Source: an uncultured Gammaproteobacteria bacterium (GTDB taxonomy: Bacteria > Cyanobacteriota > Vampirovibrionia > LMEP-6097). From it: a stretch of DNA of 64,000 nucleotides. The position numbers and the translations under genes were made by a program. The stretch spans positions 345,458 to 409,457 of the forward strand of contig CAZFCF010000001.1 in the NCBI GenBank assembly GCA_964517685.1. Reading direction: 5' to 3'. The notes beneath the pieces were generated by a model, which was not told the origin of the DNA, made no database searches, and saw only the letters and a list, made by a program, of their open reading frames with translations. Below, in pieces: positions 7,522 to 51,259 of the stretch (position 1 is its first letter; the number at the start of each line of letters is the position of its first letter).

Positions 7522-8196
7522 TTGATTATAGTGCTTCTTTTATTACGAAGATTAATATTTGTTCCTTTACTTGCTCTTAGCTTTCAGTGGCCAGCAGGTT
7601 CTGTAAGTTTATTAGATGGCGGCGGTGTTAAATCCAGTTCATTAAGTACTGGTCCTAGAGGCTATCTTGAACCCTATATTGCAAGAAATGTTGGGGATGT
7701 AATCACTATCAAAATAGTAGAAAATATTCAGTCCCTAAAAAAATCACAAATCATTCTTGATAACGATACTAGAAGTGATTCAGGTTTATCTCTTCAACTC
7801 GCCATGACTGCTACAAGCTCTCTTACTCCTTCAGCAAATAATGTGGCAAACATGCTTACTAATTTTTCTCTTCCGGTTGATTATTCAAGAAGAAATATCA
7901 AAGAGATTTCAGTGGACAACAAAGAACAATTTTTTACTTTAGTTAGCTGTTTAATAGTGGAAGTAGATCCAGAAAATGGCAATATGGTTGTAGAAGGTAG
8001 CAGACAGATCCTTATGGAAGGCGAGACTAAGAGCCTTTATGTCAGAGGTATTGTCTTCCCTAAAGATATAGATTCTAATAATGAATTACCAAGCTATAAG
8101 TTAGCCAATGCTCAAGTACAAATCATTGACAGTGGTACCCTTTCTAAAGAAAGAGACAGTGGATTCGTACAGAAAATATTTAGAAGACTTTTCTAG
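7522..8196 (+). CDS. flgH: Flagellar L-ring protein FlgH.
   Basis: ARNVGDVITIKIVEN matches the FlgH block RVGDIxTVxIxE. GNMVVEGSRQILMEGETKSLYVRGIVFPKDIDSNNELPS matches the FlgH C-terminal block. Start codon is uncertain; no clear lipobox. Confidence 0.6.
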   Translation: MIIVLLLLRRLIFVPLLALSFQWPAGSVSLLDGGGVKSSSLSTGPRGYLEPYIARNVGDVITIKIVENIQSLKKSQIILDNDTRSDSGLSLQLAMTATSSLTPSANNVANMLTNFSLPVDYSRRNIKEISVDNKEQFFTLVSCLIVEVDPENGNMVVEGSRQILMEGETKSLYVRGIVFPKDIDSNNELPSYKLANAQVQIIDSGTLSKERDSGFVQKIFRRLF

Positions 8197-9413: not shown

Positions 9414-9625
9414 ATGAAAGTTTAATTGGTTTATTAAAAGGTTTTGGTATGTTCTTTATGATGATAGGTTTTTTAGTATTTATTGGCAGACCTGTCAATA
9501 AAATGGCTTTTAAAAAAGAACTAGAACAAGAAAAGGCTATGAATCTTAAGGGAAAAGGTTGGTCATTAGAACGTTGGTTCTTTTGTGATATTTTAGCTTT
9601 TCCGAAAAAAGATTTTATGAATTAA
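9410..9625 (+). CDS. Small hypothetical membrane protein, 71 aa.
   Basis: Hydrophobic segment FGMFFMMIGFLVFIG. ORF track only. Confidence 0.25.
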   Translation: MNESLIGLLKGFGMFFMMIGFLVFIGRPVNKMAFKKELEQEKAMNLKGKGWSLERWFFCDILAFPKKDFMN

Positions 9626-12255
9626 CTAGCAACCACGTTAACTAATTTCTCTGGAACCACTATAACTTTCTTCACACTCAAGCCTTCAATACGCTTTTGC
9701 ATTTTAGTATTAGCTAAAGCAAGCTTTTCAATAGCAGCCTTATCCATTGATTTCTCAACTTCAATAACATCTATCTTTTTACCCATGAATTGAATCACGA
9801 GATTATAGCTATTAGTTTCTAGATACTCATCTTGATATTGAACCCATTTCTGTATATGTACTGAATTAGCTTTCATAAATTCAGCAGAGAAATCTTCATT
9901 AGTATTTTTCAGTAAAACCATTTCAAACCACAACTCTTCAGCTAAATGTGGAGTAAATGGAGAAAGAATTTTAATAAAGTTAAAAAGTACATGACGGAGA
10001 ACTTTTTGATCTTCTTCATCAAAGGTACTAGCAGATTCATTTCTAGCGTTTATATATTTGTACATTGAATTGATAAATTCGAACATTCTAGAAATAGCAG
10101 TATTAAAACCATTTCTTTCAGGATCTAAATCATTAGTAATCGCTTTAAGTGCTTGATGAAAAGCTCTAAGAATATCTGCATTATCAGATTCAAGCTCAGC
10201 TACGTTTTCATTAAAAGCAAATTCATAATTAGTAGTTTCTACTTTTAGTGTGTCTTTCAGTTGTTCGAAGAGACGCCATACTCTAGAAACAAATCTAAAT
10301 TGACCGATAGCAGCTTCATCTTGCCACTCTACTTCTGCTTCTACTGGAGCTGCAAAGAGAATAAATAATCTAGCTGCATCGGCACCATACTCATCGAAGA
10401 AATCATTAGTACCAACCACATTGCCGCGTGATTTAGACATCTTTGCTATCTTGCCTTCAGTCTCTGAATATTTCACCACCATACCTTGTGAAAGTAAGCG
10501 AGTGAAAGGTTCATCATAGTTCAGTAAACCACAGTCCCTAAGAGCCTTAGTGAAGAATCGAGAATAGAGTAAATGGAGAATTGCATGTTCTATACCACCC
10601 ACATATTGATCAACAGGAAAAACTTTATCCTTAGCAAAAGGTAAATTTAAATTATGCGCATCAGGATATCTCAAAAAATACCAACTACTACACATAAAGG
10701 TGTCCATAGTGTCAGTAATTCTTTTGGCTTTTTTACCAGTAGTCGCGCAAGTAGTTTCATACCACTCTGGACTATTTGCAAGTATAGAACCACCATCAGA
10801 CTTAGCTTTAGCAAAATCTATGTCGAGTGGAAGCTTTACAGGAAGCTGTTCATAAGGCACTGGATTAATTTCCCCATCTTCAGTTTCCACTAAAGGAATT
10901 GGACAACCCCAATAGCGTTGCCTGCTTATAAGCCAATCTCTCAATCTATAAGTAGTTTTGAAATCAGCAAAGCCTTTAGCCTTGCCCCACTGAACTATTT
11001 TAGTTTTAGCAGTTTCATTATCTAAGCCATTGAATTCACCACTGTTAACCAAAGTTCCAGTGCCAGTGTAAGCTGCTGTCATTGCGAGAAGGGCGGAGCC
11101 CGACGAAGCAATCCCATTGTGGTGACTTGAAGACCCATCTTCACCCTGAATAACCTCTTTCATTGGTAACTTGAATTCTTTAGCAAACTCAAAATCTCTT
11201 TCATCATGCGCAGGAACCGCCATCACTGCACCCGTTCCATAATCCACTAAAGCATAATCTGCAATCCAAACAGGAATTTTTTCGTTGGTAAAAGGATTGA
11301 GACAATAGGCACCAGTAAAGCAGCCAGTTTTTTTTCTACCTTCTGCTGTCCTTTCAATCTCTGTAAGTGACGCAGTTATAGTAATGTAATCAGCAATAGC
11401 TTTTTTCTGAGCTTCAGTACTTAGCTTAGCTACAAGCTTATGTTCGGGAGCCAAGACCATATAAGTCACTCCCATAATGGTGTCAGGTCTAGTAGTAAAA
11501 ACTTTAATTCTTTCGCTAGTAGCTTTGCCTTCAGCATCAAGAATAGGAAAATCAATTTCTGCACCTTGAGATTTACCAATCCAATTACGTTGCATTAGTT
11601 TTACGCTACTAGGCCAGTGTTCAAGCTTATCCAAGTCCGTGAGCAGTTCTTCTGCATAAGCAGTGATCTTCAAGAACCATTGTTTCATCATGCGTTTCTT
11701 GACTTCAGTGTTACCATGACGCCAACATTTACCATCTTCTACTTGCTCGTTTGCAAGCACAGTATTACATTCAGGACACCAATTAACAGGAGCTTCTTTC
11801 TGGTATGCAAGACCTTTATCATAAAGTTTTAGAAATAAATATTGAGTCCATTTGTAGTAATCTTCTCTACAAGAAACTACTTCCCTGTCCCAGTCATAAC
11901 TAGTGCCCATGCGCTTGAGCTGTTCATCACGCATATAACGAATATTTTCTTCAGTCCATTTACCTGGATGAATATTACGTTCGATAGCTGCATTCTCTGC
12001 AGGTAAACCAAAGGCATCAAAGCCCATAGGATTCAAGACATTAAAACCTTGCATTCTTTTGTAACGAGAAATTACATCTGAGATCGTATAAACGCGCATA
12101 TGTCCCATGTGGAGATTGCCACTAGGATAAGGAAACATCACTAGAGAATAAAACTGTTCTTTATTTTTCTCATTTTCATCATACTGATAGAGCTTGGCTT
12201 TTTCCCAAAGCCTTTGCCATTTAGTTTCAATGTTTTTTGGATTATATTCAGACAT
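9622..12255 (-). CDS. leuS: Leucine--tRNA ligase, with an in-frame GC-rich insertion.
   Basis: PYPSGNLHMGHMRVYTISDVISRY (HIGH region) and KMSKSRGN. 877 aa. The GC-rich element at 11076-11128 encodes EDGSSSHHNGIASSGSALLAMTAA within the protein. Confidence 0.9.
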   Translation of the reverse strand: MSEYNPKNIETKWQRLWEKAKLYQYDENEKNKEQFYSLVMFPYPSGNLHMGHMRVYTISDVISRYKRMQGFNVLNPMGFDAFGLPAENAAIERNIHPGKWTEENIRYMRDEQLKRMGTSYDWDREVVSCREDYYKWTQYLFLKLYDKGLAYQKEAPVNWCPECNTVLANEQVEDGKCWRHGNTEVKKRMMKQWFLKITAYAEELLTDLDKLEHWPSSVKLMQRNWIGKSQGAEIDFPILDAEGKATSERIKVFTTRPDTIMGVTYMVLAPEHKLVAKLSTEAQKKAIADYITITASLTEIERTAEGRKKTGCFTGAYCLNPFTNEKIPVWIADYALVDYGTGAVMAVPAHDERDFEFAKEFKLPMKEVIQGEDGSSSHHNGIASSGSALLAMTAAYTGTGTLVNSGEFNGLDNETAKTKIVQWGKAKGFADFKTTYRLRDWLISRQRYWGCPIPLVETEDGEINPVPYEQLPVKLPLDIDFAKAKSDGGSILANSPEWYETTCATTGKKAKRITDTMDTFMCSSWYFLRYPDAHNLNLPFAKDKVFPVDQYVGGIEHAILHLLYSRFFTKALRDCGLLNYDEPFTRLLSQGMVVKYSETEGKIAKMSKSRGNVVGTNDFFDEYGADAARLFILFAAPVEAEVEWQDEAAIGQFRFVSRVWRLFEQLKDTLKVETTNYEFAFNENVAELESDNADILRAFHQALKAITNDLDPERNGFNTAISRMFEFINSMYKYINARNESASTFDEEDQKVLRHVLFNFIKILSPFTPHLAEELWFEMVLLKNTNEDFSAEFMKANSVHIQKWVQYQDEYLETNSYNLVIQFMGKKIDVIEVEKSMDKAAIEKLALANTKMQKRIEGLSVKKVIVVPEKLVNVVAS
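11076..11128. repeat. Partial RPE-like element inside leuS, in frame.
   Basis: gctgtcattgcgagaagggcggagcccgacgaagcaatccc shares the left half with the 6498 and 56229 copies. Confidence 0.65.
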
Positions 12256-13986: not shown

Positions 13987-15483
13987 TTAGATTTTGTTCT
14001 CTTTATATTTCTCTAAAATATACTCTGCAAAGTAACTAATATCATCTTCAAGTTGAGAACGTTCTAAAGCAGCAAAGTATTTTTTACGATCTTCACTTGG
14101 AATAGTAAGCCATCTATATTTGCCTTGAACAAAAGCTAAGTTCATCAAAAATCTTGAAATCCTGCCATTGCCATCACTATGAGGATGAATCCAGACATAA
14201 AAATAATGTAAGAAAATTCCTCTTTCAAAACCATTCTCTATCTCTTTCAAATAATCAAATAAAGTATCTAATAAAGCATAAAGTTTTTCGTGTGCTGGAG
14301 GTACAAAATTAGCTCCCTTAATACTAACCATATGATTACGATAAACATTCAACTCACCATTGATCAACTTTGCATTAATACTAGGTTTCCACAGTTCTTG
14401 GAATAGTTTTTTAGACAAAGCTTCATTGATAACAAAATTACTTGAAATAATTTTTTTTATATATCCCAAAGCATTCATAAAACCTTTAGCAGCTAATTGA
14501 TTTTTCAAATCTACATCATCAACTTGTTCACTGTCGTTTTCTTGTAAATAATCAATAAGAGCCTTAGTTACTGTATAACCTTCAATAGTCAAACTATGGT
14601 AAGTATCATCAACAATAATTGCATCAATATCTTTATCCGTTAAGTTATTGGTTAATTTCTTTGGTTTTTTTAAATGCTCTAATATTTTTATAGCTTTTAA
14701 TATTGAAATTTCAAATCTAGAAACATATATAGGTTTTTCTGTATTAGTAGATAGAACAAAGTCATCAAAAGGATTTACCACTTTAATTTTGGCATCCATA
14801 ATTTTAAAGAACTCCTCTAACTCTAGACGAAGGACTGTATCTCCAATTTGATCTAAAGCTCCAATTAATCTTGCAAGTAAAACTGGTGAACTGTTAGCTT
14901 TAAAAAATTCAAGTATATATTGATCATCTCGATCTGATGATTTAAGCAATGACATGATTTCATATTTAAAATTTTTGTATTCACTTAAAGTGGAATTAAT
15001 TATCAAAAATTCATGTTTTAAATGACTATAAGAACCAGCAAAACAATTTGAAACTAAGATTGGTTTAGTATCAAAATTTTCATCATAAGCAGCAAGTATT
15101 TTCACACCTGAAATCAAGTCAATGATTCTATTTGACTTAGATTTAGTTGCTAAAGAAATTTGTGATGAGTGAATACTGAAATCTTCTACAAGAAATTTAT
15201 ATGCATAATTCCCAGTTAAATACCAACCATCTTTAAAACTTAAATTTAGAAATTGAAAAACTATAATCCAAAAATTATTTTTAAAAGCTATTTCTGCAGA
15301 ATCAAATTGATCTTTGATAAAACAATATTGTTTATTTAAATCTTCAAGAAAAGATTTATGCTTCAGAAATTTATAAATTTTAGTTTCAATAGAACTTTTT
15401 TCAAATACAAGTTGTTTTTGCTTAAGCTGGCGTTTTAGCCAATTCTTTGATTGAAGTTCAATATCATTCAAGGTTTCTGCCAT
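13987..15483 (-). CDS. Fic/Doc (Fido) family protein, 498 aa.
   Basis: Canonical Fic motif HPHSDGNGRISRFLMN (HxFx[DE]GNGRxxR). An upstream SLTIEG matches the inhibitory [ST]xxxE[GN] motif of class-II Fic proteins. Confidence 0.75.
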   Translation of the reverse strand: MAETLNDIELQSKNWLKRQLKQKQLVFEKSSIETKIYKFLKHKSFLEDLNKQYCFIKDQFDSAEIAFKNNFWIIVFQFLNLSFKDGWYLTGNYAYKFLVEDFSIHSSQISLATKSKSNRIIDLISGVKILAAYDENFDTKPILVSNCFAGSYSHLKHEFLIINSTLSEYKNFKYEIMSLLKSSDRDDQYILEFFKANSSPVLLARLIGALDQIGDTVLRLELEEFFKIMDAKIKVVNPFDDFVLSTNTEKPIYVSRFEISILKAIKILEHLKKPKKLTNNLTDKDIDAIIVDDTYHSLTIEGYTVTKALIDYLQENDSEQVDDVDLKNQLAAKGFMNALGYIKKIISSNFVINEALSKKLFQELWKPSINAKLINGELNVYRNHMVSIKGANFVPPAHEKLYALLDTLFDYLKEIENGFERGIFLHYFYVWIHPHSDGNGRISRFLMNLAFVQGKYRWLTIPSEDRKKYFAALERSQLEDDISYFAEYILEKYKENKI

Positions 15484-15617: not shown

Positions 15618-16295
15618 TTACTGGCTTAAAATAAGGCTTTTTAGCTCTAAGCTCCTATCAGCCAAACCCTCAATTTCTTCCGAGTTATGGCTTACAAGAA
15701 TCATTGAAGTACCCTGTTTTTTAAGCAATTGAAACTTATTAATCAAAATAGATTTAGTTTCTTTATCAATACCATTAAAGGGTTCATCAAGTAAAAGTAA
15801 TTTAGGTTTATTCATTAATGCCAAAGCTAAAGCGACTCTTTGCGCTTGCCCACCCGAAAGCTCTGCTGGATAACGACCTTCATATTCCCTAAAATTAATC
15901 TCCACAAAATCCAGTAATTCAGAAATTTCTTGTAAGAAAAAATCTTTCTTAGCTTGAAAGCCAAAAATCATTTCAGTGTTTCTCATTTCATTTTGCTTAG
16001 ATAAAGCCAAATTATCAAACACAGTTAAATGCGGAAATAGGATTCCTTTTTGGAAAATATATGAAATTTGTTTTCTAAGATCTTTTAAATCCCAATCATT
16101 GATTGATTTATCAAAGAAAGAAATAGAGCCCTTATCATAAGCCAAAAGCCGATTAATAAGTTTCAGAACTGTAGTTTTACCAGAACCACTGGGACCAATG
16201 ATAGCTAAGCATTCGGAATCAGTGACGTTAAAACTAAGATCACAAACAATCGGTTTATCACTAAAACTTTTAGAAATATCTCGTACTTCAAGCAT
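15618..16295 (-). CDS. ABC transporter ATP-binding protein.
   Basis: Walker A GPSGSGKTT, ABC signature LSGGQAQRV, Walker B LLLLDEP. Confidence 0.8.
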   Translation of the reverse strand: MLEVRDISKSFSDKPIVCDLSFNVTDSECLAIIGPSGSGKTTVLKLINRLLAYDKGSISFFDKSINDWDLKDLRKQISYIFQKGILFPHLTVFDNLALSKQNEMRNTEMIFGFQAKKDFFLQEISELLDFVEINFREYEGRYPAELSGGQAQRVALALALMNKPKLLLLDEPFNGIDKETKSILINKFQLLKKQGTSMILVSHNSEEIEGLADRSLELKSLILSQ

Positions 16296-16870
16296 TAGAA
16301 TACTTGAGTTACAGTTTCTACTAAATCAGGAACCTCTGCAAGCAAGGCACGCTCAACACCCATTTTCATAGTCATCAGAGCACTTGGACAAGTACCACAA
16401 GCCCCAACCATTCTTAGCCTTGCATCCTTAGCAACAACATCAACCAATTCAATATTGCCGCCGTCAGCAACTAAAGCAGGTCTAATTTTATTTAAAACAG
16501 CTTCAATACGTCCTCTAGCATCAGAGTCATCACCACTTGGAGCAGTTTCAGCAGGTTTATTTTGTTCTGCCCATTTATGCATTCCATCAAGATTAGATTT
16601 GATAGCTTCTTTAATCTCTAGATGAATATCTTTCCAATTGATATGTTCTTCTTTATCAACAGTAACGAAATTATTCATAACGAAAACTTTCTTGATACCA
16701 GGTATTTTAAAAAGAGATTCAGCGAGCGTATTGCCAACATTTTGAGCTTCATTAATGTTTAAATAACTCAGCGAATTTGAGTAAGGATAAATTACTTCAC
16801 TGCAAATAAACTTCAGGCTATTTGGGTTAGGGGTGTATTCCGCTCGTACAGTAAGGTTTAAGGTATCCAT
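16295..16870 (-). CDS. nfuA: NfuA-type Fe-S cluster assembly protein (Nfu_N + NifU-like domains).
   Basis: C-terminal GACGTCPSALMTMKMGVE is the NifU CxxC motif. An Nfu N-terminal domain is present. Confidence 0.65.
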   Translation of the reverse strand: MDTLNLTVRAEYTPNPNSLKFICSEVIYPYSNSLSYLNINEAQNVGNTLAESLFKIPGIKKVFVMNNFVTVDKEEHINWKDIHLEIKEAIKSNLDGMHKWAEQNKPAETAPSGDDSDARGRIEAVLNKIRPALVADGGNIELVDVVAKDARLRMVGACGTCPSALMTMKMGVERALLAEVPDLVETVTQVF

Positions 16871-16888: not shown

Positions 16889-18208
16889 TTAGTACTCAGG
16901 GAACCTGTCGTCTCCAGTATCATCGTCGTCGTCAGGGTTTTCGTTATATTCTTCAACATCTTCATCGTCTTCGAAGTCTTCGTCTTCTTCCTCTTCGACT
17001 TCTTCTTCATCTAGATCTTCAACATCATCTTCAAGGTCATCATCTTCTTCCTCAAGATCATCAGAATCATCATCTAGATCTTCATCAGGATCATCTAAAT
17101 CATCATCACCCAGCATAAGTTCTGCTTCTTGATCACTAAAATCGTTAGCACCTAATTCTTTACTATCTTGGCTTTCTAGTTCTAAAATAGACATGGTTTC
17201 ATCCTCTAAATCGATATTGTCAATAATATTATTATCCACATTTTCGCCATGTTGCAACAGGTAATCTTCTAAACTTAAATTTTCGAAATCAAGGTCATCT
17301 AATGGGTCAATTTTGACTTCTATTAAGCCTTCTAGAAGCTCGTTTTTAGGCTCAATCATTGGGTCTTTTAAGGGTTTTATCTCATAACCTAAATAACGTC
17401 CTAAGACCTCTTTTAATACTTTTATTTGACCACTGAAAGATGCGTCAAGACGACCACCTTGAGTATTTACAATACAAGAGCCTTGATCGATACTTTCATC
17501 TTTTTGAAAAACTAATTTTATGGAAGGATCGAGCACTTTTAACAAGGCTTTTTCCAGGAAAGCAACTTTATCAATATCCTTTGGATGTAAATAAATTTGC
17601 ATAATACCTTTGGCGGTAACAACTTTAGAAATAGCTCTTTCTACTTGAGTTTGCAAGACTTCATCATTAGTTTCAACTTCATATCCAAGGATTTGATTAA
17701 CTAAATCAAAAGCAATGGACATAATTTCTTTTTTGGATTCTTCAATTACATTTTTCTTAGCATGATGAAAAGTTGCGAGATAATTCATTAGCTCAGCAAT
17801 GATCTCTGAAGCTTTAGACATTCCCTCTTCAAAGGATTGTTTAAGTTCTTGTTCTTTTAAAATTACAATTTGATTTCTTTCATTTTCAAGTAATTTTTTA
17901 GTATCATAAATTTCAATCTCAGCAGTTTTTTTATAGGCATTAGCCTCCTCAACAATAGTTGCAGCCTCAGTTTGAGCCTCTTGGATCATTTGCTGTATTT
18001 CTTCTTCAGCATGAGATTTTTTAACAGCAATCTCCCTATTGAATTCCTCTAATAATGCTTCAGATTTTTTTTGTACTAAAGATTGAGCTTGATTCTCAAT
18101 TTCTTGAGTAATAGGATTATTGAAATTAAAACCAGAGTTAGAAATAGCAGTAGCTTTAGTAACAGGTACTACAATCTCCTTTACTGTTTTTTTCTTCTTT
18201 ATTAACAT
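16889..18208 (-). CDS. fliH: Flagellar assembly protein FliH (SctL family) with a ~170-aa poly-acidic C-terminal tail.
   Basis: N-terminal Glu/Ala/Gln-rich coiled coil. C-domain GSCIVNTQGGRLDASFSGQIKVLKEVL matches the FliH/YscL C-terminal block. Residues ~270-439 are >60% Asp/Glu. Confidence 0.6.
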   Translation of the reverse strand: MLIKKKKTVKEIVVPVTKATAISNSGFNFNNPITQEIENQAQSLVQKKSEALLEEFNREIAVKKSHAEEEIQQMIQEAQTEAATIVEEANAYKKTAEIEIYDTKKLLENERNQIVILKEQELKQSFEEGMSKASEIIAELMNYLATFHHAKKNVIEESKKEIMSIAFDLVNQILGYEVETNDEVLQTQVERAISKVVTAKGIMQIYLHPKDIDKVAFLEKALLKVLDPSIKLVFQKDESIDQGSCIVNTQGGRLDASFSGQIKVLKEVLGRYLGYEIKPLKDPMIEPKNELLEGLIEVKIDPLDDLDFENLSLEDYLLQHGENVDNNIIDNIDLEDETMSILELESQDSKELGANDFSDQEAELMLGDDDLDDPDEDLDDDSDDLEEEDDDLEDDVEDLDEEEVEEEEDEDFEDDEDVEEYNENPDDDDDTGDDRFPEY

Positions 18209-18580
18209 CTATACGTTCTCTAAAACTACTTCATCGATAATTTTTGCAATAGTGTGACTAATATTAGGTCGCATTTTTCTTTTACCTAATCTGTACTCAA
18301 TATATTCACGAACTAAAGGTCTTTCAGTAACAATGAACTCTTGGCTGCGTTGCACTTTAGTTTCATTTTTAACATTTGCAATTAATTTAAAAAAGTCTGG
18401 CCAAGATTTTGCGAAATAATCCCAATCCTCCTGTGACAAAGTCTCATCAATACTGAGATCCACTTCACTAATTTTTTGTACTAAAGGCAAGGGCAATTGT
18501 TCAAAAATAGATTTTTGCGTTTGTGGTGGTAGAGATCTTAAGATCAATGCCAGAGATTTTAATTTTCGATTCATGTCCAT
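18209..18580 (-). CDS. Short FliG-like protein, 123 aa, resembling only the FliG N-terminal (FliF-binding) domain.
   Basis: Sits in the fliG position between fliF and fliH. KLKSLALILRSLPPQTQKSIFEQLPLPLVQKISE resembles the FliG N-terminal block (KAAILLLSLGEE..AAEVLKHL...EV..L). No middle or C-terminal FliG domains follow. Confidence 0.4.
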   Translation of the reverse strand: MDMNRKLKSLALILRSLPPQTQKSIFEQLPLPLVQKISEVDLSIDETLSQEDWDYFAKSWPDFFKLIANVKNETKVQRSQEFIVTERPLVREYIEYRLGKRKMRPNISHTIAKIIDEVVLENV

Positions 18581-18602
18581 CCCAAATTCTCCAATTTAAA
18601 AA

Positions 18603-20366
18603 CTATTCATCCAGCCACATTTGAATTTTCTTAGCCAGTAGATCTGGTTTAGAACTTGCGACCGATTGAAAATCATTTAGAAGGTTATCAAATTGCATTT
18701 GCTCTTTAGCTTCAGGGCTATCATTTTGTACATATGAAGTCGCCTCTGGTTTCTCATATGGATTAGCAAAATCACTCTTAGACGGGTTTTGATTCATCAT
18801 TTCGCGAAGTAAAGCTTCTTGCTGTTCAAGTGCCTTACCCTCTCCAAAATCCTCAAAATCATTACTAATATAATTTTCGTTGAGAACTTCGTCAAATTCA
18901 TTAGAAAGATTTGGATCGATCTCAGGATTATAATTTTTGTTTGCAGCAGCACTTAAGAAATTCAGTGAGATTATTGCCACCAGAAGTAAGCCAACAATAA
19001 TTCCTACTATTGTAAGCACCTTCATGATTACACTCCATACTCCACCTTTAAAGAAGCTTGAAACGTTTTGCCATATAGTAGCTTTCGCAGCAGCAGAAGC
19101 TGGAGAATCTTTTGAATGTAAATCTACTACAGTGATCTTGACATTTTCTGCAGTGATCTCTGGACCAACTACAGCAGCCACACTGTCTCTTAATTGTTGT
19201 AATGAAATCATCGCTGGAACTGCTTTATCTACAGCCAGAGCAACTGTTACGTCACGAATGCCACCAGGTAAGAAAGTAATATTTTTTTGTTCATAACTAG
19301 GGAGCATCGTCTCATTGATATTAGTTGCATTATAATTTTTTCCGCTATTAGAATTAGCGCTGCCATCTCCACCGCCACCTGCAGCATTAGCTTGAAGTTG
19401 TTCTGTGTTAGCTTGGCGTGAACCAACTGCACCTTCTGAGTATAGAGTTTGTTGTTGTTGTACTTTTTCTCTAGCAAGTGAAACACTGACACTGACTTCG
19501 TATTCAGGAGAACCAAGAATCACATCAAGATACTTAGTAACTCTCTTTTCAATAATTTTATTTAGTCTTTCAACTTCATCGATGTAATCATCAGTACCGC
19601 CTTCTTCTTCGGCTTTGAAGCTGCTGTAATTTCTACCTTGAGTATCAACTATAGAAATTCTCTCTTTCTTTAAATTAGGAATATATCCTCTTAGAATATT
19701 TACAATACTTTTTACTTGTGATTTAGTGATCTCATCACCATCATTCTGAAGTTCGATTTGCACAGTTGCAGTAGTATCTGCTTCTTCATCAGTAAAGATT
19801 TTTTGCTCTGGAACATTTACTCTAACTATTGCTGAACGTAAACCTTCTAATCTACTTATAATTCTAGAAAGGTCACCATTGATAGCTCTAGTGAGTTTGA
19901 TACGTTTGTCATAATCACTTGCAGCCCAATCACTGACATCGAAAAGACCATAGTCGTCATTTTCTAAAAGATTGGTTCTTGAGAGTGATAGGTAAGAACT
20001 TTCAATTGCATTTTCGTAAACCTGGACAACATACTCTCCTGGTTTTTCACTTGGTATAACTTTAGCTTCAATGTTTACTGATTTTAACTTGGCAACAATT
20101 TCAAAAGCTCTAGCTTGATCTATTTCTTGTACTAGAGGTACTAATTTACCTTTGTTTTCGGCATTATTGTTTTCTTTTTTTCCAGCAAAGAAAAAAATTG
20201 AAATTGCAATTATGACAACAACAGAAACACCGATAATTGCATAAAGTCTTTTTTGAGGGTCATTTAAAATTCCTTGAAAGAAATTAGCTGCGCCGCCTCC
20301 TGCATTGTTGGTTCCTTCACCAAAATCAATGTCATTATTATTTTCTGTAGTAACTTCTCCTGCCAT
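18603..20366 (-). CDS. fliF: Flagellar M-ring protein FliF.
   Basis: 587 aa. N-terminal TM helix. The YscJ/FliF ring-building region (RLEGLRSAIVRVNVPEQKIF...ATVQIEL...ISIVDTQGR) aligns with E. coli FliF. C-terminal TM helix. Confidence 0.75.
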   Translation of the reverse strand: MAGEVTTENNNDIDFGEGTNNAGGGAANFFQGILNDPQKRLYAIIGVSVVVIIAISIFFFAGKKENNNAENKGKLVPLVQEIDQARAFEIVAKLKSVNIEAKVIPSEKPGEYVVQVYENAIESSYLSLSRTNLLENDDYGLFDVSDWAASDYDKRIKLTRAINGDLSRIISRLEGLRSAIVRVNVPEQKIFTDEEADTTATVQIELQNDGDEITKSQVKSIVNILRGYIPNLKKERISIVDTQGRNYSSFKAEEEGGTDDYIDEVERLNKIIEKRVTKYLDVILGSPEYEVSVSVSLAREKVQQQQTLYSEGAVGSRQANTEQLQANAAGGGGDGSANSNSGKNYNATNINETMLPSYEQKNITFLPGGIRDVTVALAVDKAVPAMISLQQLRDSVAAVVGPEITAENVKITVVDLHSKDSPASAAAKATIWQNVSSFFKGGVWSVIMKVLTIVGIIVGLLLVAIISLNFLSAAANKNYNPEIDPNLSNEFDEVLNENYISNDFEDFGEGKALEQQEALLREMMNQNPSKSDFANPYEKPEATSYVQNDSPEAKEQMQFDNLLNDFQSVASSKPDLLAKKIQMWLDE

Positions 20367-20463
20367 CCAAGTATTTCTTAATCAAATTCTTTATTCCACT
20401 TTTGTTTACTTAGCCATTTATCCCCGTCGCTTATCGGCTAGGTTTTTTAGGTAAATGCGCAAA

Positions 20464-20811
20464 TTAAACTTGCATACTAGTTAATTTATCAAAGGCACCA
20501 ACTACTTTTTGGCTTACCGCTGTTATTAACTTAAATGCTACATCAGCCTTACCTAAAGCAATCATCACTTCGTGAATATCAACCTTACCTGTATGAACAG
20601 CTTGAATACTGAGGTCTTCAGGCTTGCCCATCACGCTGTTTGCTTGATTGACTAATTGTCCTAAAGTCCCACCGAAGCTGGTTCCTGCGACTCCCGAGCC
20701 AGAACTAATATAACCGCTTAAAGCCGGATGATTAGGGACTCCTGGGACTCCCGGTAATTTGCCATAGCCTGCAAGCATGGGCATAGATTGAAATTGTTGT
20801 GTATTTGCCAT
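20464..20811 (-). CDS. fliE: Flagellar hook-basal body protein FliE.
   Basis: C-terminus VSQKVVGAFDKLTSMQV matches FliE (VRNKLVAAYQEVMSMQV in E. coli). Size is typical for FliE. Confidence 0.75.
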   Translation of the reverse strand: MANTQQFQSMPMLAGYGKLPGVPGVPNHPALSGYISSGSGVAGTSFGGTLGQLVNQANSVMGKPEDLSIQAVHTGKVDIHEVMIALGKADVAFKLITAVSQKVVGAFDKLTSMQV

Positions 20812-27283: not shown

Positions 27284-29506
27284 TTGTGTATTATAAAGAG
27301 GGACAAAAAACAACCAGTAAATACGATTATGAAATTTATAGACTTTAAAAATATATGGGTAAGGCTCGCAATTATAGTAATTATTGCGGCAATCACTTGG
27401 TCAAGTAGTATCACCAATGAATTCGTTGGTTACGATGACATCAAACTAATAATTCGTAACGAAAGAGTACAGAAAGATCTTGCTTATACTCTGAATTTTT
27501 ATTGGAATATAGTTTCAGATAGTCATAACGTAGCTTGGACAAATTACCCAACAGTAATTTATAGACCTCTAGAGTGGTTTGGTTCAGCAGTAGGTTACAA
27601 AATCTGGGGACCTAGATCTTGGGCATACCATTTATTTGTAAATTTTAGTTTCCACATTCTCAATTCAATATTACTGTTCTTTATTATTTCAAAGATATTT
27701 TATACACCGATCAAAGGCACTGAAGATCCAGCAATAGAGATTGTTTCAAGTCCAAAGGCTTTGACCAAAACTAAAGGTAAAAAAAGTAAAAGCTCTACCA
27801 AAACCTTTACTCAAAATACAAATAAATTAGAGAACTTACATAGAGTTTCTTGGTGGTTACCTTTTGTAATTATTCTACTTTGGGTAATACATCCTCTACA
27901 TAATGAGGCAGTAAATATGCTGACTTCTGGTGTTGGCTTCTTGTCAGCAACTCTATTCTGCCTGACCGGTTTTACTATTTTTCTCTATGTACAAGACCTT
28001 CATAAATTAAAGAATATTGGACTTTTAGTACTCGCAAGTGCTCTCATGTTTATTGGCTATCATGGTTCAGAAATGACTGTCATTGCCCCTTGGGTTTTAG
28101 TAGTAGTATTTGCTCGCTCGATCTTGGGCAGGGACATCAAAAGCTATAAGCATGAGCTTTTCAAGATTATTTTGGCATTTGCTTCATCTATTAGCTATCT
28201 TTCACATAGATCTTTTATTGTATCTGAAGATAAAGAATGGATGGCAGGTGGACTCAATAATTTCTTTGAAAGACTATTTGTAGTTGCACCAGAAATTTTA
28301 TTTCATTACGTTAAATTATTTTTCTTTCCTATCAAACTCACTGTAGATCAGCATCACAATGTAGTTTTAGAAAATGCTTACACACCTTACCATTTACTAT
28401 GCTTTGCAGTTGCTTTAGCTTTTGTTCTTGGCTTTTTTTATTTTATGTTTTTAAAAGAACCAGATTATGATTTGCACAATAAATTAATTGCTGGATCTAT
28501 CTTCTTTACTGGCTTTAGCATTGCAATTTCTCTGAACATTATTCCTCTCTATGTACTTGCAAGAGACAGATATACTTACTTTTTTTGTTTAGGTATGTAT
28601 TGTGTGATTTTTCTTATTGCTGATAAATATTGGTTTAGCAAAGATTCAATTAAAGAAAAATTATTTAACAACATAAATAATCTAAGAACTATTTTGATTA
28701 CAATACTTTGTATTTTAGTAGTTGCTTACGGAACTAGATCTTTTATAAAATCATTTGATTGGCGCAATGGTGAAGCTTTCTGGAGCTCTACGATTGACTC
28801 TGTAAGTGATCTTGGCAGTAAACAAAATTGGCGCTATAGATTATTGCAATATTATCAAGATCCAGGTACTACTACTTTTGTAGCAAATCAATTTATTAAA
28901 GAGAAAGCTCAAAAAGATTTCAATGAGTTTCCTTTTATTTACAACTTACTCAATAATCAAACTATTAATTTTTACCTCAAGGAGGCTGCAAACCCAGATC
29001 ATTATCTACTTAATAAATATTCTTACATTGGTAATAAAGCAATTGCTTCTGCATTATTCTTTAATGCAACTGAAGCTTTGACTACATCACAGTTTGACCT
29101 TGCAATGAATTTATTCAAAGCATCTCATTTATACTATCCTGAGCATTTCCAAACTAACTTGCAAATGCTTATTCATACTTATGGTCAGGATGAGAAATTT
29201 ACAAACTATCTATTAAGTAAAATGGAAAAGGATGCCTATAGTAATTCATTCTTAGCTAAAGGATTAATGGATGGACTGTTCTATATTAAACATCCTCGAA
29301 CTTACCAATATGCAAGGCTCTATGCACAACGCTTTCCAAACACACAAGTATTCAATGTCTATCTTTTCCATGCATCCTTAATGGTAAAAGATTATCCAAC
29401 AGCTTATGCTGCGGCAAAAGAAGTCACGAAGAAATACGTTGAACAAGATACTTTTAGTGACTTTATGAGACAGTATGAAGCGGCAAATGGGATTTCTAAG
29501 CCTTAA
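27284..29506 (+). CDS. Polytopic membrane protein with a C-terminal TPR-like region (PMT/ArnT-like glycosyltransferase fold plus TPR, TMTC-like).
   Basis: ~10 predicted TM helices in the N-terminal 450 aa, then a soluble helical-repeat C-terminus. The start may be the internal MKFIDFKN at ~27329. Confidence 0.45.
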   Translation: MCIIKRDKKQPVNTIMKFIDFKNIWVRLAIIVIIAAITWSSSITNEFVGYDDIKLIIRNERVQKDLAYTLNFYWNIVSDSHNVAWTNYPTVIYRPLEWFGSAVGYKIWGPRSWAYHLFVNFSFHILNSILLFFIISKIFYTPIKGTEDPAIEIVSSPKALTKTKGKKSKSSTKTFTQNTNKLENLHRVSWWLPFVIILLWVIHPLHNEAVNMLTSGVGFLSATLFCLTGFTIFLYVQDLHKLKNIGLLVLASALMFIGYHGSEMTVIAPWVLVVVFARSILGRDIKSYKHELFKIILAFASSISYLSHRSFIVSEDKEWMAGGLNNFFERLFVVAPEILFHYVKLFFFPIKLTVDQHHNVVLENAYTPYHLLCFAVALAFVLGFFYFMFLKEPDYDLHNKLIAGSIFFTGFSIAISLNIIPLYVLARDRYTYFFCLGMYCVIFLIADKYWFSKDSIKEKLFNNINNLRTILITILCILVVAYGTRSFIKSFDWRNGEAFWSSTIDSVSDLGSKQNWRYRLLQYYQDPGTTTFVANQFIKEKAQKDFNEFPFIYNLLNNQTINFYLKEAANPDHYLLNKYSYIGNKAIASALFFNATEALTTSQFDLAMNLFKASHLYYPEHFQTNLQMLIHTYGQDEKFTNYLLSKMEKDAYSNSFLAKGLMDGLFYIKHPRTYQYARLYAQRFPNTQVFNVYLFHASLMVKDYPTAYAAAKEVTKKYVEQDTFSDFMRQYEAANGISKP

Positions 29507-29567
29507 GGATCCAGAACTACTCAAAAGATATTGATATTTCACGAATCGATGAGTTATTATCTTCCAC

Positions 29568-30380
29568 ATGGCAACAAAAAACGCAGTAAATAACACAGGA
29601 ATAACTCCTTTAATAAATGTTATAGAGCAAGCTGCTAAAGAAGCTCATTCTAATCCTGTGGATTCGACTATTACTGATCCTAGTTCTTCTACTTCTGCTC
29701 CTTTTAATCAACTTTTTACCAAGAGTATTTCTATGGCTAATGAACTTCTTTCCTCTCCTTTCTCAAACGAGAGTAACATGACTGTAACAGAAAATATTGT
29801 TAATGGAATTACGGCACTTGGTTATAAAGCTGCGGGACAAATTTCTTCAGTACTAAACAATGTTAGCCTCACACTTGGAAACACAATAAGAAAAAAACTG
29901 CAAAACGAAGCAAGAGAAACTTTAATCACAACTCTTAACGATCCTAGTGTGCAAATTGACTGTAAACCAATATACAAGAAGGGTTCAATTCCAGTAAGTA
30001 AATTCTTTGGATATCCAATACAGAGAGTTCCCACAACTCTTACTCTTAAGACTCAAGATCAAAAAATGCGCACTTATACAATATGGCTTGAAATTGAAAA
30101 TCCAGAAACAGAAGGTATAATTAGTAATTGGTCAAACATAGAAAATATTCAACTATTAAAAGTAGAACAAGATTTGATTACGGATTCTTCTGGTTTAAAT
30201 GGAAATAACCTTAAACTTGAGATAGGGGTAGTTCCACCATCTCCACCGCCGCCGCCGCCAAAACCTGGCGAACGAACTCAATTATACTATCCAGACCCTT
30301 TTGATCAAGAACTTTTAGATTGCCTCAACAAAAAAGATATTTTGAATAAAGCTTGGAAAGCAGCTCTTGGCTATTCTTAA
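29568..30380 (+). CDS. Hypothetical proline-rich protein, 270 aa.
   Basis: Contains VVPPSPPPPPPKPGE. No TM segment. Ser/Thr/Asn-rich N-terminus. Confidence 0.45.
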   Translation: MATKNAVNNTGITPLINVIEQAAKEAHSNPVDSTITDPSSSTSAPFNQLFTKSISMANELLSSPFSNESNMTVTENIVNGITALGYKAAGQISSVLNNVSLTLGNTIRKKLQNEARETLITTLNDPSVQIDCKPIYKKGSIPVSKFFGYPIQRVPTTLTLKTQDQKMRTYTIWLEIENPETEGIISNWSNIENIQLLKVEQDLITDSSGLNGNNLKLEIGVVPPSPPPPPPKPGERTQLYYPDPFDQELLDCLNKKDILNKAWKAALGYS

Positions 30381-30525
30381 TAGCCAAATCGATATAGAAG
30401 AAGGCAAACACATAGAATCTAAGATCTCTCTACAAGGTTTGCTTGCCTCATAAAGAATCCTCATACTTATAAATAGCAGCCGGTCGTATATTGGCTTCTA
30501 GAGCTATAATCTCAGATTTATTTAA

Positions 30526-32004
30526 TTGACATTACGTCGCGATTCAGCTATTATCTCGAGGGTGCAGGTCAGATCACTATTCAAACCTTTTTACTATGCT
30601 CCAGACAGCGAAGCTACAAGTGGAGCTGGGGCAGAACCACCACCAGAAAGTAATTTTAATAAAAAGCTTGCAGCCAAAGTCAAACCTAACCCAAATCTGC
30701 AATTAAAGTTAGCAGTAATATCTTTCCGTCAAAAAACTTCTGCTTTGTATGAAGAAGCATTAGATCCTGACGACCCTGTGGGCACTTTATATAAAAAGAA
30801 TAAAACTAAAGTTGACCTAGAGCAATTAGCAGAAGAAGTAAAAAAACTTATTGAACAAGGTGCAGATCCTAATTTTCAAATCAAAGGAAGATTTTTACTG
30901 GGTTTTCTATGTGAAATTTACGATCACCTAAATTCCATATCTGATTTTGGTCCAGAAGCAAAATCACTTAACGATGTCTTTAAAGAATTAGTTATTAGCT
31001 TAGTAGAATCAGGAGCCAACTTAGCCAATATTGAGTGGAGATGGCGAGATCATGAATCATCCTATAATCCCATATTATCGATATTTAATCATTCCGAGGA
31101 TTTCAATAATTTAGAAAAGCTTCTATTAATTAACTCAACTGCTCAAAGTGTTTTAGATCAAACAACATTACTACATCAAGTCATTAAAATTTACTCACCA
31201 AGGGATAAAACATCTGATTACAACGATAAATTTGCAAAGATAGTTGAGGCAATGATTATGAATGGTGCAGATCCAGATTCAAGGAATGCAGATGGTGATT
31301 CAGCTAAAGATGCGGCTCTTGGACTTGATCACTGCTCCACTGCAATTAAAAAAGCTCTCGGTATACAAGATTGTCTACCTAATCTTTATGAACTTTATCA
31401 GAAAGGTGATTTTGATGATGAGCTCTTGGAAAGAAGTCATCCTGATGATCTTATTACTAATGATGTAAGTAACTCTGTAATTTATTTGATGACTAGTAAA
31501 GGAGATATAGAAAATTTAAAAAAAATTTTAAAGCCAGCTAAAATAAATTTTTCAAATAATCCAGAATTTTGGACTAGGATATTGCGCGAAGCATTGGACA
31601 CGTTACGTCCATCCTCTCGTGGTGAAAATGCAATAGAAGTAATAATGTTTTTTCTAAATAATGGAGTCAAACCAGATTACCTTATATCTAATCGCTTTTT
31701 TACTCTTATAACAGATATAAGGTTATTAGGTAGCATTAGACCATTACCACAAGAATTTTTAGATAAAATTATAGAAACATCTCGCTATTTAAGTGATATT
31801 AACCTTAAAGAACTACGTGAATTTATTGAAAAAAAATATCATTTAAGTAATGATAAAGCTCTTTTGAAAAAATTCCCAAGAGCTACACCTGAGAATATGG
31901 ACGAATTAAAAAGGTTATATAATCAATATATTGTAAATCCAGAGAAGCCTGAGAACTTAACGAACCTCAATATACACCTGCATTTTATTAAAAATAGAGA
32001 TTAA
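30526..32004 (+). CDS. Ankyrin-repeat protein, 492 aa.
   Basis: Several ANK-like units: LIEQGADPNFQIKGRFLLGFLCEI, LVESGANLANIE, MIMNGADPDSRNADGDSAKDAALG, FLNNGVKPDYL. Confidence 0.6.
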   Translation: MTLRRDSAIISRVQVRSLFKPFYYAPDSEATSGAGAEPPPESNFNKKLAAKVKPNPNLQLKLAVISFRQKTSALYEEALDPDDPVGTLYKKNKTKVDLEQLAEEVKKLIEQGADPNFQIKGRFLLGFLCEIYDHLNSISDFGPEAKSLNDVFKELVISLVESGANLANIEWRWRDHESSYNPILSIFNHSEDFNNLEKLLLINSTAQSVLDQTTLLHQVIKIYSPRDKTSDYNDKFAKIVEAMIMNGADPDSRNADGDSAKDAALGLDHCSTAIKKALGIQDCLPNLYELYQKGDFDDELLERSHPDDLITNDVSNSVIYLMTSKGDIENLKKILKPAKINFSNNPEFWTRILREALDTLRPSSRGENAIEVIMFFLNNGVKPDYLISNRFFTLITDIRLLGSIRPLPQEFLDKIIETSRYLSDINLKELREFIEKKYHLSNDKALLKKFPRATPENMDELKRLYNQYIVNPEKPENLTNLNIHLHFIKNRD

Positions 32005-32040
32005 AATTAAACCAGTCAATCAGAAGTTCTTAAGTAGACT

Positions 32041-32106
32041 GGATTGCCACGTCGGACTTCGTCCTCCTCGCAATGACATGGATCCTTACGCTTCGCTCAG
32101 GATGGT
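32041..32106. repeat. RPE-like element, right half, at the junction of the ankyrin-gene insertion.
   Basis: ggattgccacgtcggacttcgtcctcctcgcaatgacatggatccttacgcttcgctcaggatgg. The last 30 nt are identical to the ddl insert at 41133-41163. Confidence 0.7.
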
Positions 32107-32951
32107 AACTGATACTTATAAATAGCCGCCGGTCGTATATTGGCTTCCAGGACTATAATCTCTGACCCATCTTGTTTCATTAAGTCAATAGAAAAAATCT
32201 CAGGCATAATGATTTGGTTAGCCCAAGCGAACTCATCAATCACATTAACTATTTCAGCAATAAATTTCTTTTGAGCATCGCCCCAGTTTTCTTGGATATA
32301 TAAATCACCAAATATATAAAGTGCTTTGGTCTCTTTGGCATCCTTTATATATTCTTGTAAGAGACAATCATCATATTTTAAAATTTTGCTAATTGCTTCA
32401 TTGCCTACATTTAACTCTGTGACTGGGATTACTGCAAAGTCAATTTTTTCAGTTCCATGACGTGGCTTAACTGCGATAGATTGAAATTTAGATAGTTTAT
32501 TTTTTTCCTCATCACTAATAAATTTATGATTAGTATGAATGGTTAAAGTGAAAGGCTGTCTAATTTCATTTGCTGTCATTAAGGCATAAAACAAAAATTT
32601 ATCATCAAAGATTTTAGCTATTTTATTGTAGGGATTAACCTGATAGACTTCATGGTCAAATGCCCATTTGGAGATGGTTTTATGAAGGCTTATTTCTTCG
32701 TCCAAAGGTAGATGCACAGTATAAATATAAAAAGATTTAGGATCTAACTCTAAGAGCTTATTCAAATCATCATAATGACAAGTAAGAACTTCTTTAAAAT
32801 CTGTTTTTTCTTTTATAGCTTTTAGAGAAGATTCGAGTAATTTACCATCAAGACCATGTACTAAATATAGAGATAAATTTTTCTTAGAACCTCTAAATTT
32901 AAGCTCTCTACCCAAATTAAAATCTTCGAATTTATTAGCTAGACTTCTCAT
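32097..32951 (-). CDS. Hypothetical protein with weak ATP-grasp-like features.
   Basis: Weak ATP-grasp resemblance (KPRHGTEKIDFAVI, QEYI, LEANIRPA). Its last ~18 codons are duplicated at 30463-30516. Confidence 0.35.
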   Translation of the reverse strand: MRSLANKFEDFNLGRELKFRGSKKNLSLYLVHGLDGKLLESSLKAIKEKTDFKEVLTCHYDDLNKLLELDPKSFYIYTVHLPLDEEISLHKTISKWAFDHEVYQVNPYNKIAKIFDDKFLFYALMTANEIRQPFTLTIHTNHKFISDEEKNKLSKFQSIAVKPRHGTEKIDFAVIPVTELNVGNEAISKILKYDDCLLQEYIKDAKETKALYIFGDLYIQENWGDAQKKFIAEIVNVIDEFAWANQIIMPEIFSIDLMKQDGSEIIVLEANIRPAAIYKYQLPS

Positions 32952-33442
32952 AAATATGCTCTTGGGTTAATTGCCTTAGAGAAATTTTTACCATCTTCAT
33001 AGAACATAACCCTGATGCCTCTAAAGCCAATTTTAGCCTTGCCTCTATAGTTATTTTCATAAGCAACTAAACCTTTCTGGAAAAAATGACCTTGAACTTT
33101 AGCCTGGTTAACTTCTTTTACATAACTACCTCTTTGACCTAACTCAAACATTTTCAAAGCTCGGTTTTTAACTTCTTCTCTATTTAAATTTGGATTTGCA
33201 TGAGGTTGTGGATAAAGATGTTCCATCTTTACTTTGTCATTGAGGAAGAAAGCTTTAAGACGCCAGCTACTATCTAATGAATAAGTTACATAGCCAGTAA
33301 AGCCTAGCTTAGAAGGGAAGTCCTTAACTTCTACAGGCTGACCATACTGAGCTAGATTTTGCTCATAATTATTATTCAATTTTGCAGAGACTTTATTAAC
33401 ACTAAAGAATATTAATAAAGCTAAAGCTAATTTGTATTGCAT
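32948..33442 (-). CDS. Hypothetical secreted protein.
   Basis: Signal peptide MQYKLALALLIFFSVNKVSA. I start the CDS at internal Met 38 (33442). The longer 33553 start would overlap the divergent kinase gene. Confidence 0.4.
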   Translation of the reverse strand: MQYKLALALLIFFSVNKVSAKLNNNYEQNLAQYGQPVEVKDFPSKLGFTGYVTYSLDSSWRLKAFFLNDKVKMEHLYPQPHANPNLNREEVKNRALKMFELGQRGSYVKEVNQAKVQGHFFQKGLVAYENNYRGKAKIGFRGIRVMFYEDGKNFSKAINPRAYL

Positions 33443-33516
33443 AGAGTTAATTATATAGCAAATGAATGATTGAAGTTTGGAAGCAGTGCCAAAATGATTT
33501 AGAATTACTTTTCTAG

Positions 33517-43610: not shown

Positions 43611-44411
43611 TTACAAATTCACAGTCTTCTGCCCAGTAAGGTCTCTGAGCAAAGTCTCATGGGCGCCGTTTTCTTTCATATGCTTGAGAAAACTATTGCG
43701 CAGAATTGACGGAGAAACTCTTTTAGTAAGTCCAGATTTCTTAGCTGCATCTCTAATCAAACGAAAGATTTCGCGCTCTGAAACTCCTTCACCACGGCGA
43801 TTAAGTATAAGCTTAGAGTTAATACCCAGATTATTGTTTTTAATATGCTCTTGAATATAGCTTGCAAGTAGCTGATTGAAGGGGATTATGCGTTCTTTAA
43901 ATTTATTAGATCTTGGAATAGTAATTAATTGTGACTCTAAATCAATATCTGTAATAGTCAGCTTAACTAGTTCACCAACTCTGATTCCAGTAGCATAAAT
44001 TAACTCCAAAACAATTTTACTTTTTAGATCATGCTCTTCATAATCAAGCAAAATTACAATTTCATCTTCAGAAAGAAAAGTACAAGTCTTGTTACGGTAT
44101 TGAGAATCTCTTTGGATTTGCATAAAAGGATCTCTACTAACTAAACCCTTCTCTCTGAGCCAAATCCAAAAACCATGCATTGCCGTTAATTTACGATTGA
44201 CAGCAGCTGTAGATTTACCCTGCTCTTCGATATAAGCTCTAAATTTATTTAGGATCTCAGAATTTAAATTAGTAAGTAGAAAATTTACATCAAGCTTGTT
44301 AACACAAAAATTATAAAAATCCATTAAATCGCGGCGATAAAGTCTAAGAGAATTAAAACTAAAAATCTTATTTTCTTCGATATAATTTATGTATTCTCCT
44401 AAAAGCTCCAT
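43611..44411 (-). pseudogene. XerC/XerD-like tyrosine recombinase that appears C-terminally truncated. The reading frame stops where a GC-rich palindromic element begins.
   Basis: N-terminal LYRRDLMDFYNFC core-binding block. Catalytic ATGIRVGEL (Arg) and ILRNSF (H-x-x-R) are present, but the final GH..TT..Y.H tyrosine block is absent. The stop codon abuts the element at 43507-43609. Confidence 0.5.
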
Positions 44412-44463
44412 AGCAATTCAGTATTAAAGGATTATAGCCCAACAAGCGCAAGCTTGTCTTTAG

Positions 44464-48097: not shown

Positions 48098-48131
48098 ATT
48101 ATCTATACTATTATAAAGTATTGAAATACTA

Positions 48132-51041: not shown

Positions 51042-51185
51042 GATTTAATTACCTTCCGTTTTATCGAATCCTCACTTGATATTAAAAGGATAATGATAGG
51101 GAAATTTTGACAGGTAAACCCTTAATCAGGTATTAACTATTAAGTATCAACTTGGAGTTCTGTCTTCTAAAAAGCTTATGGTAGG

Positions 51186-51222
51186 CTGGATTGCCACGCC
51201 GCTTCGCGGCTCGCAATGACGA
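51186..51222. repeat. RPE-like fragment, right half, intergenic.
   Basis: ctggattgccacgccgcttcgcggctcgcaatgacga. Confidence 0.6.
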
Positions 51223-51259
51223 TTATTGTCCTTAAATTAACACCCATGCTCCCGATGGA

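Follow-up and report, generated by a model that had tools for sequence, protein, structure and literature searches.

In the canonical flagellar motor, FliG has three domains and connects the MS ring with the switch and the stators. Its N-terminal domain (FliG_N, Pfam PF14842; structures 5TDY for T. maritima FliF_C:FliG_N and 5WUJ for H. pylori FliF-FliG) is an armadillo-like domain that binds the C-terminal segment of FliF and co-folds with the two C-terminal FliF helices, fixing the rotor to the MS ring, and the covalent link between the N and M domains of FliG transmits torque to this ring. Here we analyzed a 64-kb stretch of DNA from an uncultured bacterium of the Caenarcaniphilales, non-photosynthetic relatives of the cyanobacteria (contig CAZFCF010000001.1; the whole stretch is called the window below), which carries fliE, fliF and fliH and, in the position of fliG between the last two, a gene for a protein of 123 amino acids (aa). 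Fold predictions and profile comparisons are best read as making this protein a divergent, stand-alone FliG_N-like domain without the FliM-binding and torque domains.

Buchnera, a non-motile endosymbiont, has filament-less flagellar basal bodies that are presumed to be protein exporters, and it keeps full-length fliG, fliM and fliN. The system described here would likewise be a flagellum-derived basal body retained without motility; unlike in Buchnera, its rotor protein would be cut to the anchoring domain, and its hosts are free-living or environmental lineages represented by metagenome-assembled genomes (MAGs), not obligate endosymbionts. A second point of comparison is the injectisome (non-flagellar type III secretion system), a non-rotating export machine of flagellar descent with homologues of FliF (SctJ), FliH (SctL), FliI (SctN) and the export gate. 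A FliG-like protein is missing from injectisomes altogether, and a secretin takes the place of the L and P rings, whereas the system here keeps FliE, a flagellar-type FliF with a FliG-binding tail and FlgH, with flgB, flgC, flgF and flgG rod genes in sister lineages.

The locus also resembles partial flagellar gene sets known from the same class, Melainabacteria, in which flhA/B, fliI, fliP/R, flgB/C/F/G and fliE are kept without hook, filament, switch or stator annotations. Such sets are reported to be insufficient for a functional flagellum, and a role in secretion has been postulated (Soo et al. 2014, PMC4040986; Utami et al. 2018, PMC5877343; bioRxiv 10.64898/2026.04.24.720558); some Melainabacteria are reported to have complete flagella. 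According to the supplement of PMC4040986, Ca. Caenarcanum bioreactoricola, whose column we assigned by elimination of IMG identifiers, has FlhA, FlhB, FliI, FliP and FliR and no FliG/M/N, MotA/B, FlgE or FliC, and the partial-set Gastranaerophilales have no FliG, FliM, FliN or MotAB. Those reports are presence/absence tables, with FliF, FliG and FliH scored absent in PMC4040986. The table there for Ca. Caenarcanum is annotation-based and incomplete; having also missed FliE/F/H and FlgH, it is a lower bound only. Our literature searches found no truncated or N-domain-only FliG and no mention of a fliE-fliF-small gene-fliH operon. Partial flagellar sets in this class are already known, and a single-domain FliG appears to be undescribed so far.

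Position and predicted fold of the 123-aa protein

The open reading frame (ORF) map of the window between 15 and 23 kb was read for the operon and reproduced exactly the coordinates and packing of fliE, fliF, the 123-aa ORF and fliH given in a preliminary description of this DNA (Table 1). The fliF stop lies 22 nucleotides (nt) from the ATG of the 123-aa ORF, and the fliH ATG comes directly after the TAG of the latter. The position between fliF and fliH recurs in at least 26 related loci (denoted here by L numbers). In the canonical controls L013 and L036, the same slot holds a full-length fliG; the Phycisphaerae-like L013 reads flgB-flgC-fliE-fliF-fliG-fliH-fliI-fliJ...motA-motB...fliOPQR-flhB, and its FliG of 335 aa carries all three Pfam domains FliG_N/M/C.

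The 123-aa protein is predicted to adopt the armadillo-like FliG_N fold. Comparison of the predicted structure with FliG_N had been set as a check by the preliminary description, and among 48,164 PDB representatives FliG chains took the top seven places for the first predicted model and four of the top four for the second, the best structural match covering 83 of 88 residues of FliG_N specifically. Profile-profile alignment with hhalign placed residues 10 to 38 on residues 9 to 37 of 22 planctomycete FliGs (probability 33%, P 4.6e-4). Against 12 diverse FliGs (E. coli, Ralstonia, Azospirillum, Roseivivax, two actinobacteria, planctomycetes) the N terminus again fell on the N terminus (probability 43%, P 2.4e-4); overall, the region in register comprises residues ~10 to 40 on FliG ~9 to 41. 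The hhalign score is 32.8, while 200 column shuffles average 13.0 (standard deviation (sd) 2.2, maximum 19.4) and the reversed alignment scores 14.9, and alignments to the armadillo motifs of FliG_M and FliG_C were weaker (P ~0.009). A FliG hidden Markov model (HMM) searched without filters against 2,256 six-frame ORFs (the window and Melainabacteria loci, about 0.6 Mb) returned the 123-aa family as 13 of the 15 top matches, at HMM positions ~10 to 46, each match being individually non-significant (E 0.45-1), and gave no stronger match.

The protein also resembles FliG_N in its gene position, in its size (about 100 to 120 residues), in an N-terminal helix-turn-helix motif, K-x-A/L-x-L-L-x-S-L, that lies in register, and in having a partner FliF that retains the C-terminal binding helices. 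The family alignment shows an invariant N-terminal block, KLKSLALILRSLPP..Q..IFEQLP. Unlike FliG, the protein is complete in itself, with no helix-NM continuation into FliG_M and FliG_C, and unlike FliG_N it has its own scattered invariant positions within residues 45 to 123 (W53, W60-P61, E86-R87, Y93, P105).

Several results weigh against this assignment. The 123-aa protein of the window has no Pfam or NCBIfam match at E<=1 and falls below the curated FliG cut-offs (Pfam PF14842, PF14841 and PF01706; NCBIfam FliG), and no FliG family (Pfam FliG_N/M/C, NCBIfam) was returned for seven other family members. The family profile searched against PDB sequences found no FliG chain, its one match being to a de novo design and spurious (E 0.32), and the Foldseek matches are all non-significant, with a best E of ~1.

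With the curated HMMs silent, the likeness to FliG_N is visible only by structure prediction and profile-profile comparison; the resemblance claimed in the preliminary description holds at these two levels and escapes every curated HMM. The ORF could instead encode a small helical protein particular to this lineage, for example a chaperone for export, a regulator or an accessory of FliH or FliF, that sits in the fliG slot and resembles FliG through helical-repeat geometry. MgtE_N (Pfam PF03448) belongs to the same helical-repeat superfamily as the FliG armadillo repeats, and the Pfam MgtE_N model also matches many true FliGs. We regard an origin outside FliG as unlikely, given the rank of FliG chains among the PDB representatives, a profile match that is in register at the N terminus and about 9 sd above the shuffles, the exact fliG position of the gene and the FliG-binding tail that FliF keeps.

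The FliF and FliH partners

Both Pfam FliF domains score above their cut-offs (110.6 and 35.2 bits versus 24.4 and 23.8), and the NCBIfam equivalog cut-off for FliF is missed (114.8 versus 129.75). The FliF tail is nearly invariant across 25 loci (F-D/E-x-L-L-N-N-F-Q-x-V-A-x-x-K-P-D/E-x-L-A-K-K-I-Q/E-x-W-L-D/E) and aligns with the corresponding segment of FliF from E. coli, Ralstonia and Phycisphaerae, with the shared motif ..P..vA.li+.Wl..(D/E). From this conserved motif, the 123-aa protein is predicted to bind the C-terminal helices of FliF.

In FliH, the domain at residues 135 to 263, which is the FliI-binding region, reaches 69.2 bits (cut-off 24.1); FliH stays below the NCBIfam equivalog cut-offs (82.3 versus 148.9), and the protein also scores against SctL models. 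Its N terminus is MLIKKKK in the window and MLIK[KRA]K across the clade. The C-terminal tail (residues ~280 to 439, 49% D/E) is atypical, canonical FliH being without such an acidic tail. The orthologues at L010-L012 and L014-L035 have acidic low-complexity tails of very different length, with totals of 264 to 975 aa.

The retained FliH domain implies that FliI exists elsewhere in the genome. No fliI follows fliH, as had been pointed out, and this is correct by position; it carries little weight, because the solitary flgH indicates that flagellar genes are scattered in the source genome, so that the statement is positional and not genome-wide. The presence of flgH elsewhere in the window, also in the preliminary description, was confirmed, ~9 kb from the fliE-fliF-123-aa-fliH operon.

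Absence of the FliG middle and C-terminal domains

The FliM-binding middle domain with its EHPQR motif is absent, as the protein stops at residue 123 with fliH beginning at the next codon, and the charged torque helix of FliG_C that faces MotA is likewise missing (no Pfam FliG_C signal, hhalign P 0.009). These two domains had been noted as lacking, and they are indeed lacking from the 123-aa protein and from every detectable relative, all of which are <=130 aa. An exhaustive hmmsearch of 1.84e9 representative proteins with the family profile returned only six clusters, all of 72 to 130 aa and none within a longer FliG. The FliG HMM scan of about 0.6 Mb found no FliG_M/C-like ORF above noise.

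Besides the operon and flgH, a Pfam survey of ORFs of at least 110 aa found no flagellar gene in the window, and tblastn of the window with FliG/I/J/P/Q/R, MotA/B and flagellin queries gave no further one. Over +-10 kb at 22 related loci, tblastn did not find FliG, FliI, FliJ, MotA/B or FliP/Q/R. Nor does a gene for FliM, FliN, the hook or the filament occur in the 64 kb of the window or in these flanks.

A split FliG, in which the 123-aa protein is the N-domain of a working rotor, the M and C domains come from a separate gene, and a C ring and stators encoded elsewhere allow rotation, would sit well with the scattering of flagellar genes (flgH solitary, fliI not next to fliH) and with the complete flagella of some Melainabacteria. 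We consider it improbable in view of the FliG_M/C scan of about 0.6 Mb, which was empty, the published tables without FliG, FliM, FliN or MotAB in Ca. Caenarcanum and partial-set Gastranaerophilales, and the covalent N-M link needed to pass torque to the MS ring. To our knowledge, no functional FliG split at the N-M helix has been described.

Conservation of the locus across lineages

A scan of GTDB, with one genome per species and the Caenarcaniphilales-tier alignment as query, recovers that tier only and gave 22 loci in species representatives, all Caenarcanales/Melainabacteria-type MAGs. Assemblies with the locus include JAJTHA01, JBILGG01, CAZELI01, CAZKAT01, JAYQSH01, JABSOS01, DUDT01, JAKVAO01 and JBMOEX01 and, for the sister lineages, GCA_964602915.1 and GCA_004769085.1. 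Gene order is the same in all 22 (tblastn, reference panel): atpE on the opposite strand, then fliE-fliF-small gene-fliH, usually followed by nfu. Identity to the window is 54-65% for FliF, 48-76% for the 123-aa protein and 28-44% for FliH. FliF homologues fall into tiers of 53-97% identity within Caenarcaniphilales, 34-43% in other Melainabacteria and <30% in other phyla. Orthologues of flgH, 61-67% identical, lie ~7 kb from fliH at L017, L018 and L021. The records of L017, L018, L019, L022, L029 and L035 are titled 'uncultured Gammaproteobacteria' or 'Proteobacteria bacterium' yet carry a Caenarcaniphilales-type locus; these titles are probably taxonomic mislabels.

The synteny extends to four deeper Melainabacteria lineages (L010, L012, L042 and L043; FliF 35-43% identical), where it forms part of a ten-gene operon, flgF-flgG-(unnamed, 184-266 aa)-flgB-flgC-SLT-fliE-fliF-(126-130 aa)-fliH, followed by an unrelated gene on the other strand. 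The small proteins of these four are 28-30% identical to the window protein over a full-length alignment. In the same operon, the SLT protein is FlgJ-like, and the 184-266 aa ORF between flgG and flgB has no Pfam match; candidates are a divergent FlgA/P-ring-related protein and a novel one. L009 (RIFCSPLOWO2-type Melainabacteria, 9572-11879) has neither the small gene nor fliH; a 205-aa ORF and then acpP come after fliF, which suggests further reduction or a relocation of the two missing genes. The 205-aa ORF was considered as a relative of the small gene and rejected, being methyltransferase-like.

An identical 123-aa protein occurs on metagenomic contigs with the same neighbors. A search of 5.8e9 proteins gave 45 homologue clusters, all of 119-126 aa and with identity down to 50%, whose named sources are Candidatus Caenarcaniphilales or Melainabacteria MAGs; throughout these clusters and the related loci (26 or more), the protein keeps a constant length of 119-130 aa. 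The median ratio of nonsynonymous to synonymous substitution rates (dN/dS) of the gene is 0.03 (Nei-Gojobori, 34 pairs with unsaturated dS). In nine related loci, the small gene begins within the fliF stop (gap -1), and at its other end the stop codon touches or overlaps the start of fliH. Junctions between small gene and fliH in the relatives are -11, -1 and +1 to +11 nt and lie in other frames; a read-through fusion with fliH across the in-frame TAG-ATG of the window was rejected on this ground. Judged from its sequence conservation, synteny and dN/dS, the 123-aa ORF goes well beyond chance and is a working gene, coupled in translation to its neighbors, instead of a remnant. The preliminary description had favored a genuine short gene over a decayed one, as the constant length, the low dN/dS and the coupling to fliF and fliH bear out, and had also allowed for a degenerating motility system, which the strong purifying selection and the presence of the gene in at least 22 species contradict.

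That the ORF is the surviving 5' remnant of a pseudogenized fliG in a decaying motility locus, a view that could draw on the partial sets and inferred flagellar losses reported in Melainabacteria and on L009 having lost both genes, is highly improbable and effectively refuted by the selection and synteny data: the length and dN/dS given above, an identity of the 123-aa protein that is as high as that of FliF and above that of FliH, and a fliH start only 0-11 nt from the small-gene stop, which leaves no vestige of FliG-M/C coding sequence downstream.

A proposed FliG_N-only collar

We propose that the 123-aa protein forms a FliG_N-only collar on the MS ring in Caenarcaniphilales, and put the probability of this reading at roughly two in three. 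In Caenarcaniphilales and sister Melainabacteria, the middle domain that binds FliM and the C-terminal torque domain that faces the stator would have disappeared from the ancestral fliG, and the remaining N-domain would then have been kept under strong purifying selection, translated with FliF and FliH from the tightly coupled fliE-fliF-small gene-fliH operon. One copy of the 123-aa protein would bind to, or co-fold with, each FliF C-terminal tail, and the copies would form a thin cytoplasmic collar under the MS ring that stabilizes ring assembly. With no C ring, the FliH(-FliI) export ATPase complex may find its docking surface on this collar; FliH, which has a conserved N terminus and a variable acidic tail, may dock there or on FlhA.

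The machine would be a non-rotating basal body with a type III export apparatus, comprising the MS ring, FliE and the FlgH L ring, with rod genes in sister lineages; a reduced, possibly non-rotating export apparatus had already been suggested in the preliminary description. The published table for Ca. Caenarcanum fits this pattern, within the limits of its annotation. We infer the absence of rotation and switching from the lack of FliG_M and FliG_C, as nothing would hold FliM/FliN or face MotA. More tentatively, and with somewhat less than even odds, Caenarcaniphilales and their sister Melainabacteria orders may share a stable, order-wide, non-rotating machine. Its parts would be the MS ring with a FliG_N-only collar, FliH/FliI and the export gate, FliE, rod genes and the L ring, and it would have no C ring, stators, hook or filament.

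Other features of the window

The atpE/ATP-synthase operon lies at 21086 (+), divergent from fliE. A scan of the operon for promoters and terminators gave counts at or below shuffle expectation. The gene after fliH had been called nfuA in the preliminary description; it does encode an Nfu-type scaffold (Nfu_N and NifU), and it is not a strict NfuA (TIGR03341 score 39, cut-off 269). An Nfu-type gene follows fliH in most relatives and is inverted in some; it is probably not part of the flagellum-derived machine but a syntenic neighbor in the usual place of fliI. An ABC ATPase gene and a Fic-domain gene come after it. The Fic-domain protein (498 aa, 13987-15483, minus strand), just downstream of the operon, is syntenic in L014, L017 and L019 (51-58% identity).

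Table 1. Positions of the flagellar operon, its neighbor and flgH in the window, and of the ten-gene operon at related loci
Feature	Position	Strand	Remarks
fliE, first gene of the operon	20464-20811	-	115 aa; Pfam FliE 4.3e-15, TIGR00205 5e-14, both above cut-offs
fliF, MS-ring protein	18603-20366	-	587 aa; Pfam YscJ_FliF 1e-31, YscJ_FliF_C 2e-8
FliF C-terminal tail, residues ~558-587, QFDNLLNDFQSVASSKPDLLAKKIQMWLDE	18606-18695	-	canonical two-helix FliG_N-binding motif
GGAG ribosome-binding site	18589-18592	-	8 nt before the start codon of the 123-aa gene; read from the sequence
123-aa FliG_N-like single-domain protein in the fliG position	18209-18580	-	without FliG middle and C-terminal domains
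fliH	16889-18208	-	439 aa; Pfam FliH 4.1e-19
Nfu-type Fe-S scaffold gene	16295-16870	-	191 aa; Pfam Nfu_N 1.9e-23, NifU 4.3e-22
flgH, L-ring lipoprotein, stand-alone	7522-8196	+	Pfam FlgH 5.1e-28
Ten-gene operon	L010 2683-10394; L012 5677-13509; L042 5771-13414; L043 6112-13493		

Elsewhere in the window, dnaA lies at 1990-3501 (+); the cumulative GC skew falls until ~56 kb, and its minimum is not at dnaA. Five consecutive ORFs at 27284-33553 (740, 270, 492, 284 and 201 aa) have no Pfam match at 1e-5, and the precomputed annotations on matching contigs are also empty. The region 43611-54345 contains a tyrosine recombinase (43611-44411), a Bro-N domain protein (53509-54345) and four ORFs without a Pfam match, two of ~970 aa (45155-48097 and 48132-51041), one of 339 aa and one of 367 aa; it is a possible mobile island. 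The two ~970-aa ORFs were considered as paralogues, which was rejected, as they are unrelated to each other. Between ValRS-like and IleRS-like genes, a HicB-like antitoxin gene (57769-58152, +) adjoins an MNT/Pol-beta-type nucleotidyltransferase gene (58165-58515, -), the two probably forming a toxin-antitoxin-related pair.

Implications

A single-domain FliG kept by selection suggests that the FliF-binding N-domain has an essential role of its own, in the assembly or stability of the MS ring or in docking of the export ATPase. It accounts for the absence of FliG from automated annotations of these genomes, and censuses of flagellar genes in Vampirovibrionia gain a new family of small proteins from it. 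If the proposed collar is real, anchoring and stabilizing of the MS ring by the FliG N-domain would be separable from torque generation and switching. The machine would then represent an independent 'de-motorization' of the flagellum that parallels the way the injectisome arose, and a living example of a rotary flagellum turned into a static export or envelope-spanning machine, the step that has been postulated for injectisome origins.

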